Source: an uncultured archaeon (GTDB taxonomy: Archaea > Altiarchaeota > Altiarchaeia > IMC4 > SCGC-AAA252-I15). From it: a stretch of DNA of 64,000 nucleotides. The DNA lies in NCBI GenBank assembly GCA_964587725.1, contig CAZPLO010000002.1, positions 25,521-89,520 on the forward strand, in the 5' to 3' direction. The position numbers were made by a program, and so were the translations under genes. Of this stretch, positions 1-16,044 are shown piece after piece; within the stretch, counting starts at the first letter, position 1; each line of letters opens with the position of its first letter. The notes under the pieces were generated by a model. That model searched no databases. It saw only the letters and a list, made by a program, of their open reading frames with translations, and was not told the origin of the DNA.

Positions 1-40
1 TTATCAGTCGAACGCTCTAACCGAACTGAGCCACGGGACC
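1..40 (-). tRNA. tRNA-Ile(GAT), 5' half; the rest lies outside the window
   Basis: Minus strand reads GGTCCCGTGGCTCAGTTCGGTTAGAGCGTTCGACTGATAA: acceptor 5' strand, D-arm, anticodon stem TTCGA and loop CT-GAT-AA. Truncated by the window edge. Confidence 0.85.
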
Positions 41-76
41 GATTTGTCACTAGGTTCTTAGGTTTTTGGCGAATAT

Positions 77-196
77 GTCCGTTGGGGGTCTCGCGACCTT
101 TCGACGCGTGAAAGGCGGAGCCTTTCAGCGCGCCGGAAACCTTCGGTTTCCGAGCGTTATCAGTCGAACGCTCTAACCGAACTGAGCCACGGGACC
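77..196 (-). pseudogene. Disrupted second copy of tRNA-Ile(GAT)
   Basis: 157-196 is identical to 1-40. A 52-nt insertion (105-156) follows the anticodon loop, then TCGAAAGGTCGCGAG resumes (90-104). No TTCGA T-loop and no intact acceptor 3' strand follow. Confidence 0.7.
105..156. repeat. Two tandem 26-nt palindromic (REP-like) units
   Basis: cgcgTGAAAGGCggaGCCTTTCAgcg (105-130) and cgcCGGAAACCttcGGTTTCCGagcg (131-156). Each has an 8-bp core stem, a 3-nt loop and cgc...agcg ends. Confidence 0.8.
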
Positions 197-255
197 TTTT
201 TCGTAGGATATATAGTGGTTTAAACCATTAAAAGTAGAGGCGCTTTACCCTAAGG

Positions 256-2025: not shown

Positions 2026-2619
2026 CTATTTCCACCTGCGTATTCTGCCCACGGGCTTCTCCAGTGTCATCTTGTACCTGGGCGGCCTATAAGGTATCTG
2101 TGCGGCCTCCGCGGCCCGAACGTCCTCTATGGTGATGAACGCGTTTGGGTCTATAGCCTTGACTATGGTGACCACGTCTTCGACGTTCACCCGCTTCACC
2201 ACCGTGTAAATGACGCGCATCACGCCCTCGTTTCCTTCGGCGGTGACGCTGGTGAGCCCGTAGCCGGCGTCCTTCAGCCGCCCCATCATCCTGTCCCCCT
2301 CCTTCTTGGTTATCACCTGAACCACCTGGAGTCCGACCGCCAGCTGCTCCTCCAGCCAGATTCCCACGTAGTTTCCGGCTGCGAAACCGCCCGCGAAGGC
2401 GACGTAGGCGGCCCAGTTGGTTAGGTTCTGTATTATCTGGGTGATGGCGAGAAGCCAGGCCAGCGACTCGATGAAACCTAGTATGGGGGCGGCGTATTTC
2501 ATGCCCTTGGCCACGAACATTATCCGAAGCGTCCCTATGCTGACGTCCAGTATCCTGGCCAGGAATATGACTGTTGGGAGTATAACCCAGTTGGCCATCC
2601 ACGGTTCTATGGTTAGCAT
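2026..2619 (-). CDS. UPF0316 / DUF2179-DUF5698 (YebE-like) membrane protein
   Basis: IFLARILDVSIGTLR and GGFAAGNYVG motifs, three TM segments, and a C-terminal IDPNAFITI ferredoxin-like domain. Confidence 0.85.
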   Translation of the reverse strand: MLTIEPWMANWVILPTVIFLARILDVSIGTLRIMFVAKGMKYAAPILGFIESLAWLLAITQIIQNLTNWAAYVAFAGGFAAGNYVGIWLEEQLAVGLQVVQVITKKEGDRMMGRLKDAGYGLTSVTAEGNEGVMRVIYTVVKRVNVEDVVTIVKAIDPNAFITIEDVRAAEAAQIPYRPPRYKMTLEKPVGRIRRWK

Positions 2620-15760: not shown

Positions 15761-15787
15761 GGGCTGGTGGTCTAGTCTGGTTACGAC
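15761..15787 (+). repeat. Copy of the tRNA-Val 5' end (26/27 nt identical)
   Basis: gggctggtggtctagtctggttacgac versus ...ttatgac at 15887; followed by an AT-rich hairpin at 15788-15825. Confidence 0.85.
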
Positions 15788-15886
15788 GAACCTTTTTCTT
15801 TCTTTAAAAAGAAAGAAAAACGTTCACGAAAAAGAAAGAAAATAGCGCTAATAAAACCTAATCCCCCAAGTATTACCTGCAAGTCA

Positions 15887-15961
15887 GGGCTGGTGGTCTA
15901 GTCTGGTTATGACATCGCCTTTACGAGGCGAGGATCCCCGGTTCGAATCCGGGCCAGCCCA
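15887..15961 (+). tRNA. tRNA-Val(TAC)
   Basis: Acceptor GGGCTGG/CCAGCCC-A, anticodon arm TCGCC-TTTACGA-GGCGA, T-arm CCCGG-TTCGAAT-CCGGG; CCA not encoded. Confidence 0.97.
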
Positions 15962-16030: not shown

Positions 16031-16044
16031 TCCGGGCCAGCCCA
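16031..16044 (+). repeat. Copy of the tRNA-Val 3' end (14 nt)
   Basis: tccgggccagccca is identical to 15948-15961. Confidence 0.8.

Follow-up and report, generated by a model that had tools for sequence, protein, structure and literature searches.

At one end of the DNA analysed here, part of a tRNA-Ile(GAU) gene is split in its anticodon loop by two hairpins, and the same gene start is repeated a short distance further on; is the split copy a tRNA gene with an intron, the target of a transposon, the remains of a rearrangement, or an error of assembly? The DNA is a stretch of 64,000 nucleotides from an uncultured archaeon of the Altiarchaeota (G000:C2:25521-89520), hereafter the window, and its source genome (G000) is 1.56 Mb in size and 92% complete. 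The arrival and movement of archaeal tRNA introns is an acknowledged open question, and a preprint on their arrival states, in the part cited here, that "how they arrive remains open" (10.64898/2026.10.13.758758). In this paper, we describe the insert as a member of a family of twin-hairpin cassettes that lie in loop-coding positions of tRNA sequences, and we hold, with confidence and doubt about evenly balanced, that window positions 41-196 are a DNA-level recombination scar holding a mobile twin-palindrome cassette.

The tRNA-Ile(GAU) lies on the minus strand, and positions 1-37 of the Rfam tRNA model match window positions 40->1 as a 3'-truncated hit (the features of the locus are collected in Table 1). 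As the initial annotation of this DNA had noted, window positions 1-40 recur exactly at 157-196; the repeat extends to 45 nt at 96% identity, and a scan of the whole genome found the 40-mer at this locus only. The two 40-nt repeats are separated by 116 nt without an open reading frame (ORF). The upstream copy, which we call the stub, is interrupted between tRNA positions 38 and 39 by two hairpins of the same plan, which the same annotation had recognized and which indeed span 52 nt, with perfect 8-bp stems and 3-nt loops. It was also right that the anticodon stem and the variable loop resume behind the hairpins, but not that the T-arm is wholly lost, as the T-stem 5' strand is kept and the stub breaks off at tRNA position 53/54. 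These last 15 nt (window 90-104) equal the first 15 nt of an intact tRNA 3' half that was found as a loose end in contigs of the sequencing runs described below. In the spacer region, neither of two 30-mers (41-70 and 71-100) has a second occurrence in the whole genome. The TATA-like box in the leader may, judged by its sequence, be the promoter of the stub, and the 49-nt spacer in front of the second copy has no comparable box; since the only recognizable promoter box is thus on the stub, the clean tRNA-Ile copy is probably transcribed through the stub and the cassette, from a transcript that starts with them.

Table 1. Features of the tRNA-Ile(GAU) locus in window coordinates
Feature	Position	Strand	Basis or remark
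Intergenic leader of the stub, with TATA-like TTTAAA at 219-224 (-28 to -23 from stub base 1)	197..255	-	
tRNA-Ile(GAU) 5' stub, positions 1-38, 40 nt, GGTCCCG...CTGATAA	157..196	-	identical to window 1-40
Content of the stub: acceptor 5' strand, D arm, anticodon stem 5' strand and loop	157..196	-	aligned to intact tRNA-Ile of six relatives
Twin-hairpin cassette, 52 nt, between tRNA positions 38/39	105..156	-	8-bp stems and fold
Cassette unit A: CGC-T-CGGAAACC-GAA-GGTTTCCG-GCG	156->131	-	hairpin 134-152
Cassette unit B: CGC-TGAAAGGC-TCC-GCCTTTCA-CGCG	130->105	-	hairpin 109-127
TCGAAAGGTCGCGAG, tRNA-Ile positions 39-53 (anticodon stem 3' strand, variable loop, T-stem 5' strand)	104->90	-	
Spacer, 49 nt, unrelated sequence	41..89	-	no ORF
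Second tRNA-Ile(GAU) copy, positions 1-38	1..40	-	cut by 100-N gap, intact in reads

The second copy turned out to belong to an intact gene. Window position 1 directly adjoins a run of 100 N (C2:25421-25520), and the genome contains 15 runs of 100 N and 3 runs of 10 N, lengths that mark them as scaffolder gaps. Past the gap, in the tRNA sense, the sequence AATCTCGCCGGGACCA comprises the last part of the T loop, then the 3' strands of the T stem and of the acceptor, and lastly the discriminator. We also analysed four public runs (X1-X4) of one microbial mat metagenome study, two of which may be the source of this DNA. In contigs of X3 and X4, the 40-mer is preceded on the plus strand by CCGGCGAGATTTGAACTCGCGACCTTTCGA, and in the tRNA sense it runs directly into TCGAAAGGTCGCGAGTTCAAATCTCGCCGG, an intronless 3' half; together with the tRNA 3' end past the gap, this means that an intact, intronless tRNA-Ile exists, and that the copy at the edge of the window is not another broken one, as the initial annotation had considered. 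Read by hand, the intact tRNA-Ile forms a regular cloverleaf, with the acceptor GGTCCCG/CGGGACC, the D stem GCTC/GAGC, the anticodon stem TTCGA/TCGAA and the T stem GCGAG/CTCGC.

The duplication itself is also present in the reads, and so is not an artefact of scaffolding: a 176-nt unitig over window positions 11-186, which crosses both junctions, was recovered in all four runs. In the contig graph, a 19,216-nt contig ends in the 40-mer and a 13,451-nt contig starts from it, while the unitig forms a loop leading from the 40-mer through 41-156 back to the 40-mer. The depths of the flank, the loop and the 40-mer were 47, 72 and 100 in X1, 79, 154 and 265 in X2, 8-10, 15 and 28 in X3, and 5-6, 9 and 10.6 in X4, respectively. 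As the loop depth is 1.5-2 times the flank depth and a contig ends exactly at the end of the 40-mer, there appears to be more than one 156-nt unit per genome on average, or the units may occur as excised circles. Metagenome scans with the unit junction and with the 29-nt half-cassette returned 0 matches.

The hairpins belong to a family with the plan CGCTC-hairpin-GGCGCGCC-hairpin-GAGCG, which is 50-56 nt long and has fixed ends and a conserved core; the two hairpins are therefore one conserved cassette, and not units that were inserted iteratively and independently of each other, as the initial annotation had proposed. Copies were found by pattern and structure scans, since MAFFT misaligned the variable stems. 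A strict scan of the source genome for a GCGCGC core directly flanked by two hairpins returned 4 sites, all in the loops of tRNA fragments, i.e. the tRNA-Ile locus of the window, tRNA-Phe (C10), tRNA-Ser(TGA) (C9) and tRNA-Arg(TCT) (C1); shuffled sequences, which held ~3 times more GCGCGC cores than the genome, yielded 2, 2 and 0 sites. At the latter three loci, an intact tRNA is followed, 0-130 nt further on, by a partial copy of its own 3' part, in which the cassette lies between TTCRAA and TC, that is, at T-loop position 59/60. A variant with a shorter core, the fifth copy in this genome, is placed likewise behind a gene called Asp by ARAGORN. All these copies lie in tRNA fragments, the enrichment for which a genome-wide pattern search had been suggested, and four strict copies plus one variant do not amount to the accumulation expected of REP-like elements. 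The hexamer GCGCGC is itself about three-fold under-represented in this genome (257 sites vs about 810-860 in shuffles).

Across the family, the cassette occupies position 59/60 of the T loop, 20/21 of the D loop and, in the window, 38/39 of the anticodon loop. The minimum free energy (MFE) fold of 19 non-redundant T-loop cassettes always consists of two GC-clamped hairpins, CGC-N-stem-loop-stem-GCG followed by CGC-stem-loop-stem-N-GCG. The family ends are 5-nt inverted sequences (CGCTC/GAGCG) with overall dyad symmetry. The window cassette has the CG start, a hairpin, the GCGCGC core, a second hairpin and a GCG end, and is inserted in a tRNA loop in the tRNA sense. In that sense, its first 29 nt are identical to those of a cassette from a genome of the same genus (81% identity overall), which fixes its orientation; its 3' end, CACGCG, departs from the GAGCG consensus, so that the copy ends in CGCG. 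The number of units varies, being mostly two, with four hairpins in one relative and a single unit in another, in line with the earlier view of a tRNA-linked miniature family of similar-sized, GC-clamped units.

The family extends well beyond this genome. The pattern GCGCGCC-N15-27-GWGCGTC matches 16 of 41 related genomes, and the reversed pattern, which served as a control, matches few. Among 17 contexts examined, 9 are fragments behind an intact tRNA called by ARAGORN, and two more were recognized as such by eye at contig starts. In another two, both from G022, the cassette lies within 157-nt and 194-nt anticodon-loop introns of the sole full-length tRNAs, one of which is a tRNA-Ile(GAU) and the other, by hand reading, a Val(TAC); the remaining four are ambiguous. 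A stricter pattern matched metagenome-assembled genomes (MAGs) labelled Altiarchaeales/Altiarchaeota, Woese-, Pace-, Nano- and Parvarchaeota, some Methanosarcinales and others; many bacterial matches (e.g. Collinsella) were judged from the table only to be due to chance or coding sequence. One named Altiarchaeota MAG has a layout like that of the window, with tRNA positions 1-20, a cassette at 20/21, 14 nt of tRNA, a 29-nt spacer and then the complete gene. In G019, a full-length tRNA-Ser(GCT) bearing both an anticodon-loop insert and a T-loop cassette lies ~110 nt before a clean copy, and in another relative a single hairpin precedes a tRNA-Ile 3' stub. The tRNA-Ile gene is intact and intronless, at the syntenic site, in 6/6 close relatives, with arrays of hairpins and 3' stubs downstream of it in 4/6. 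The earlier suggestion of an element accompanied by tRNA duplication holds in the run contigs, at the other loci of the source genome and in the relatives alike, and the intact gene is preserved.

Duplicated tRNA ends are also widespread in the source genome apart from the cassette. We counted as a stub any stretch of 12 nt or more, within 400 nt and on the same strand, that exactly repeats a tRNA's own 5' end upstream of it or its 3' end downstream of it; by this definition, stubs (5', 3' or both) were found at 14 of the 28 tRNAs called by ARAGORN, and at 0, 0, 0, 1 and 0 in shuffled flanks. They are 12 to 40 nt long and may stand in arrays, as at a tRNA-Gly with three direct 17-nt repeats. 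A hairpin of at least 6 bp directly abuts 11 of 18 stubs, vs 383 of 3000 random positions. Furthermore, for nine of the 28 tRNAs the nearest contig end or gap is no more than 400 nt away, vs 0.97 expected (binomial 2.8e-7). Half of the tRNA genes of this genome thus carry stubs that confuse tRNA finders, and such loci also break assemblies; ARAGORN missed the tRNA-Ile, calling no tRNA at window 1-196, and appears to misname a tRNA-His. Island-size attachment-site (att) repeats were considered and set aside, as tRNA 16-mers elsewhere in the genome mostly reflect the similarity of isoacceptors.

Several of these stubs have features of their own. Within the window, tRNA-Val(TAC) (15887-15961) has both kinds (15761-15783 and 16031-16044): the upstream stub copies positions 1-23 at a distance of 103 nt and is followed by a T/A-rich hairpin, and the downstream one copies positions 62-75 at a distance of 69 nt and has GATAAGCGAGCTGTAAGCGAGCGGGG before it. 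Five 5' stubs, at tRNA-Met (C1:5235), Gly-GCC (C1:144934), C22:2538, C30:10 and the tRNA-His gene, end in the D arm and are followed by a common motif, ACGGCTnGCTCCGTnCACACGC, a module that differs from the twin-hairpin cassette. A recurrent hairpin, AACCTTTTcttt-loop-aaagAAAAGGTT, with GATCAAAAG or CACGAAAA after it, stands right behind tRNA 3' ends and stubs, namely downstream of tRNA-Leu (C16), tRNA-Met (C1) and tRNA-Ser (C4, C9), and is also present at the upstream stubs of tRNA-Val (window ~15790-15840) and C27; it may be a terminator or another repeat family. Collapsed 'minihelix' copies, made of the 5' acceptor strand, a hairpin and the 3' acceptor strand, were seen upstream of the real gene at L124 (reverse strand, about 145-270) and upstream of tRNA-Ser(GGA) in G000:C4.

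Is the cassette in the window an intron? The rules for the bulge-helix-bulge (BHB) motif were applied by hand and calibrated on an intron of the source genome (C1:103955; H = CUGU/GCAG, bulges GG|C and CG|A). This intron belongs to a gene at G000:C1:103955-104050 (-), which ARAGORN calls tRNA-Asp(GTC) with an odd intron and which by hand is a tRNA-His(GUG): G-1 is encoded, position 73 is C, and the intron, at 37/38, is a textbook hBHBh'. At the window site the hBHBh' motif is not formed: at 37/38, H would be CUGA/UCAC, with 3/4 pairs and no inner helix, and by hand reading splicing there would leave G38, while a 3' bulge for 38/39 would have to take in T39, a stem base. Nor is a BHB motif formed in the MFE fold of the stub. 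In addition, joining of the exons would not give a complete cloverleaf, as the interrupted copy stops at position 53 and lacks the T loop, the T-stem 3' strand and the acceptor 3' strand before the next copy begins. The insertion is thus no normal intron, as the initial annotation had assumed. The genome has one EndA-type match, in a 176-aa frame.

The constraint on the cassettes appears to act on DNA. Of the 19 non-redundant T-loop cassettes, 5 have the better fold in the sense strand, 5 in the antisense strand and 9 in neither, and the stems contain only 4 (sense) or 2 (antisense) G-U pairs. The cassettes at tRNA-Phe (G000) and at tRNA-Gly of another genome (G012) are identical at 52 of 56 positions, with all four differences in the loops, a near-identity that, as far as sequences can tell, may be counted as evidence of cassette mobility. 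Given the absence of strand bias, the near-absence of G-U pairs and the restriction of the Phe/Gly differences to loops, the strand-symmetric, Watson-Crick stems bear the mark of DNA palindromes that are kept or renewed at the DNA level, and not of a strand-specific RNA fold.

In the reading that we favour, the 156-bp unit, consisting of tRNA-Ile positions 1-53 split at 38/39 by the cassette and 49 nt of filler, would have come to sit as a direct repeat before the intact, intronless tRNA-Ile gene, and the stub would be non-functional. The cassette would be a small selfish or passively spread DNA element that lives in loop-coding positions of tRNA-like DNA and moves among tRNA loci by recombination through tRNA-derived sequence. 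The route might be a single crossover of a small unit X-cassette-Y'-spacer carrying tRNA arms, short-homology gene conversion or template switching, or one-sided homologous plus microhomology joining, and only crossovers that leave a clean gene would survive. Since cassette copies within the essential gene would be tolerated only if they were spliceable, the cassette would persist in the source genome in redundant partial copies beside a clean gene, and since the unit is repeated or excisable, assemblies would break at it. Recombination mediated by the arms is favoured by some of the inner arms, which have a sequence foreign to the neighbouring tRNA or read as the terminal arm's reverse complement. 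The duplications include 2-7 nt of trailer or leader and were therefore not made from mature tRNA.

A number of observations weigh against this reading. The low mismatch of terminal arms to their hosts (3/182, vs 93/286 for inner arms), which favours arm-mediated recombination, was obtained with a 22-nt inner-arm window that reaches past the duplication boundary and inflates the inner-arm mismatches. Both arms at the present locus are identical to the host (40/40 and 15/15), so that a foreign origin is not demonstrable here, and near-identical cassettes with different, host-matching arms would fit movement of the cassette alone equally well. In the k=31 contig graph, units arranged in tandem in the chromosome would look the same as a 156-nt circle beside the chromosome. 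The conserved UGAGCG 3' end of the T-loop cassettes pairs with the universal UUCR of the T loop, so that a central helix of 4 bp and, next to the T stem, a bulge of 3 nt (CG|U) are formed, which hints at a constraint at the RNA level, i.e. splicing; a splice motif is thereby half present in these cassettes, which lack an inner helix for the 5' site. Finally, no recombinase, transposase or donor molecule for the cassette was found. There is no integrase at the tRNA-Ile locus; among viral donors, a strict pattern gave 0 matches, and a loose one gave at least 120 matches at chance level, with twin hairpins in 0 of 80 examined loci. The only tyrosine-recombinase (PF00589) match of the source genome (C27:14306-14797 (-), in a 502-aa open frame) is 1.5 kb from a tRNA that has a 25-nt 5'-end stub 96 nt upstream.

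We tentatively consider, as a possibility, that archaeal tRNA introns have their raw material in the twin-palindrome cassette, a protein-less mobile DNA caught in the act. It might spread between tRNA loci via the universally conserved sequences that flank the loops and land first in redundant partial copies; recombination into a working gene at a spliceable site would then give rise to an intron, as may have happened in two genes of G022, a tRNA-Ile and a tRNA-Val-like one. Excised minicircles of the 156-bp unit may occur as well, and they would account for the loop depth of 1.5-2 times the flank. The window locus and its relatives supply sequence-defined intermediates, i.e. stubs beside clean genes, loaded full copies beside clean ones and introns of sole genes, and the pattern of cassettes may show how tRNA introns arise in this archaeal group.

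We are doubtful that the cassette alone is a loop-targeting miniature transposon, inserted into tRNA loop DNA by an HUH/RAYT or another enzyme. Insertions into working genes would be lethal on this account, and only hits in redundant partial duplicates would survive, or the insertion itself would make the duplication. It would explain why the same cassette stands at 59/60, 20/21 and 38/39 of many different tRNAs, and why the tRNA-Phe and tRNA-Gly cassettes of different genera are 93% identical with arms that match their own hosts. The varying number of hairpin units (1, 2 or 4) and the short terminal inverted ends fit as well, as does one copy outside tRNA sequence with the 8-nt direct repeat GCAAGCCA on both sides; moreover, the highest density of MITEs (miniature transposable elements with inverted repeats) in archaea is given, in the part of the source cited, for Ca. 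Altiarchaeum (PMC11602168). But the HUH/RAYT mobilization put forward in the initial annotation is not supported, as no match to PF01797 (Y1_Tnp) was found in the 92% complete source genome or in 3 of 5 other cassette genomes, two having one. Small GIY-YIG ORFs were tried as a candidate for a cassette-linked enzyme and rejected, as a cassette adjoins 0/8 such loci, with a tRNA within 1.5 kb of 2/8. In addition, the borders of the cassette in tRNA loops show no direct repeat, i.e. no target-site duplication, the spread of stub lengths is unlike a fixed staggered cut, and the inner arms are sometimes foreign to the neighbouring tRNA.

An unlikely alternative is a displaced intron: an ancestral tRNA-Ile would have carried the cassette as an anticodon-loop intron, and an intronless segment would have integrated, either through attP x attB recombination or through gene conversion, along the lines of the Sugahara et al. 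(2012) model, restoring a clean gene and pushing the old intron-bearing 5' part upstream, where it would still follow the original promoter. The TATA-like box does precede the stub and not the clean copy, and the tRNA-Ile(GAU) of the more distant G022 has a ~190-nt intron at 37/38 that contains the cassette. The change of a tRNA 5' fragment and of its intron by an integrating element has a precedent in the cited part of that study (PMC3293823), and T-loop cassettes supply, with their 3' ends, two parts of a splice motif, its central helix and its 3' bulge. However, tRNA-Ile is intronless in all the closer relatives, the splice motif fails at the window site for the reasons given above, and the 49 nt between the copies include neither an element body nor an integrase. 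Furthermore, 0/17 T-loop contexts are a sole complete gene with a cassette at 59/60, and the loaded copy of G019 adjoins a clean one.

We consider it improbable that the stub and the cassette function at the RNA level, be it as a structured 5' leader that RNase P or the splicing endonuclease would process, as a source of stable or circular small RNA, or as a decoy att site that shields the real gene from integrating elements. The stub has the only recognizable promoter box, its region folds at -56.4 kcal/mol, far below shuffles (z = -4.5), the ends and core of the cassette are conserved over phylum-level distances, and pairing of the inner with the terminal arm is seen in several fragments, including ones in which the inner arm is unlike the host tRNA. 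Yet stems without strand asymmetry and with almost no G-U pairs are unusual for an RNA-selected structure, the positions, arms and spacers are highly variable among loci and relatives, tRNA-Ile has no such leader in six relatives, and Rfam gave no match for the cassette at E<=1. Lastly, an assembly artefact, such as a strain-variant chimera or a collapsed or misjoined repeat, might be suspected from a repeat that terminates exactly at a contig end beside a gap, from the enrichment of tRNA loci at assembly breaks and from runs that all come from one study, but is very improbable given the unitig across both novel junctions in every run at 1.5-2 times the flank depth, and the same layout inside contigs at other loci of this genome and in many genomes, with repeats shorter than the usual k.

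Around the scar that we favour, the neighbouring genes encode a DUF4130 protein, a radical SAM protein and TFIIE-alpha, and synteny with the same-genus genome comprises gene A, gene B (DUF4130), tRNA-Ile and gene C (TFIIE-alpha); in that relative, two further genes, UPF0047 and a 639-aa ORF without a Pfam match, stand between gene B and tRNA-Ile. A conserved element of the form ATGCACC-hairpin-GGGAAGA is present ~30-40 nt upstream of many tRNA genes, such as the tRNA-Ile of relatives (L013, L014, L015, L017) and, in G000:C1, tRNA-Arg and tRNA-Met; it is absent at the tRNA-Ile of the source genome. In one Woesearchaeota MAG, the cassette is contained in a longer repeat at four places (L079, L111, L112, L113), of which three lie at contig ends, and the flanks on either side are identical over more than 60 nt. 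A match to Hammerhead_II at window 2379-2460 was taken as chance (E 0.97; 19.9 bits vs a 37-bit cutoff).

How does the cassette compare with known systems? REP/REPIN sequences are short GC-rich hairpins, often paired, with a conserved plan, variable stems and tens to hundreds of extragenic copies. The cassette resembles the REP/REPIN-RAYT system in its paired short GC-rich hairpins of the same plan with variable stems, but differs in that the source genome has no Y1 gene and that there is only a handful of copies per genome, strictly linked to tRNA sequence. The double-hairpin elements and GC clusters of fungal and algal mitochondria are about 30-80 bp long, consist of two hairpins, encode no protein, are mobile, and insert in intergenic regions, in introns and near tRNA genes. 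The cassette is likewise small, double-hairpinned and protein-less, but those elements are organellar and unrelated in sequence, with no reported coupling to the duplication of tRNA ends.

As with the attL/attR sites of SSV-type and pNOB8-type integrases of archaeal viruses and plasmids, the tRNA end is directly repeated here, an intact gene is regenerated, and the breaks fall within the anticodon and T loops or close to them. Unlike in those systems, there is no element body or integrase between the repeats (0-150 nt), several stubs may form an array, and a conserved hairpin cassette stands at the junction; in Thermococcaceae, by comparison, tRNA fragments flank elements of 9-23 kb, according to the cited part of PMC9897764. 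A review gives, among the positions of archaeal tRNA introns, 20/21 and 59/60, and in the part cited describes the mechanism of their transposition as unknown (PMC4090602). The transposition of tRNA introns in the Thermoproteales (Fujishima et al. 2010, via PMC4090602) is, like the movement considered here, presumed to occur at the DNA level by an unknown mechanism. As described there, it involves spliceable introns in working genes, flanked by BHB motifs, whereas the cassettes, found in Altiarchaeota and DPANN-type archaea, lie mostly in dead partial copies beside clean genes, and the motif is missing at the window site.

No published description of the cassette or of short stub arrays was found in the literature searched, supplements not covered. 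The closest published model is that of tRNA gene disruption in the tRNA-Thr of Caldiarchaeum subterraneum (Sugahara et al. 2012; PMC3293823). In the cited part of that study, as in the present case, the full gene is preceded by a 5' fragment of the tRNA in direct repeat, the two copies differ in intron content, a natural population is heterogeneous, and recombination via a tRNA-like sequence of a mobile element is proposed. There, a 1.8-kb insertion that encodes a recombinase separates the copies; here, they are separated by 49 nt without a gene, and it is the fragment, not the working gene, that holds the insert, a conserved cassette found at many tRNAs.

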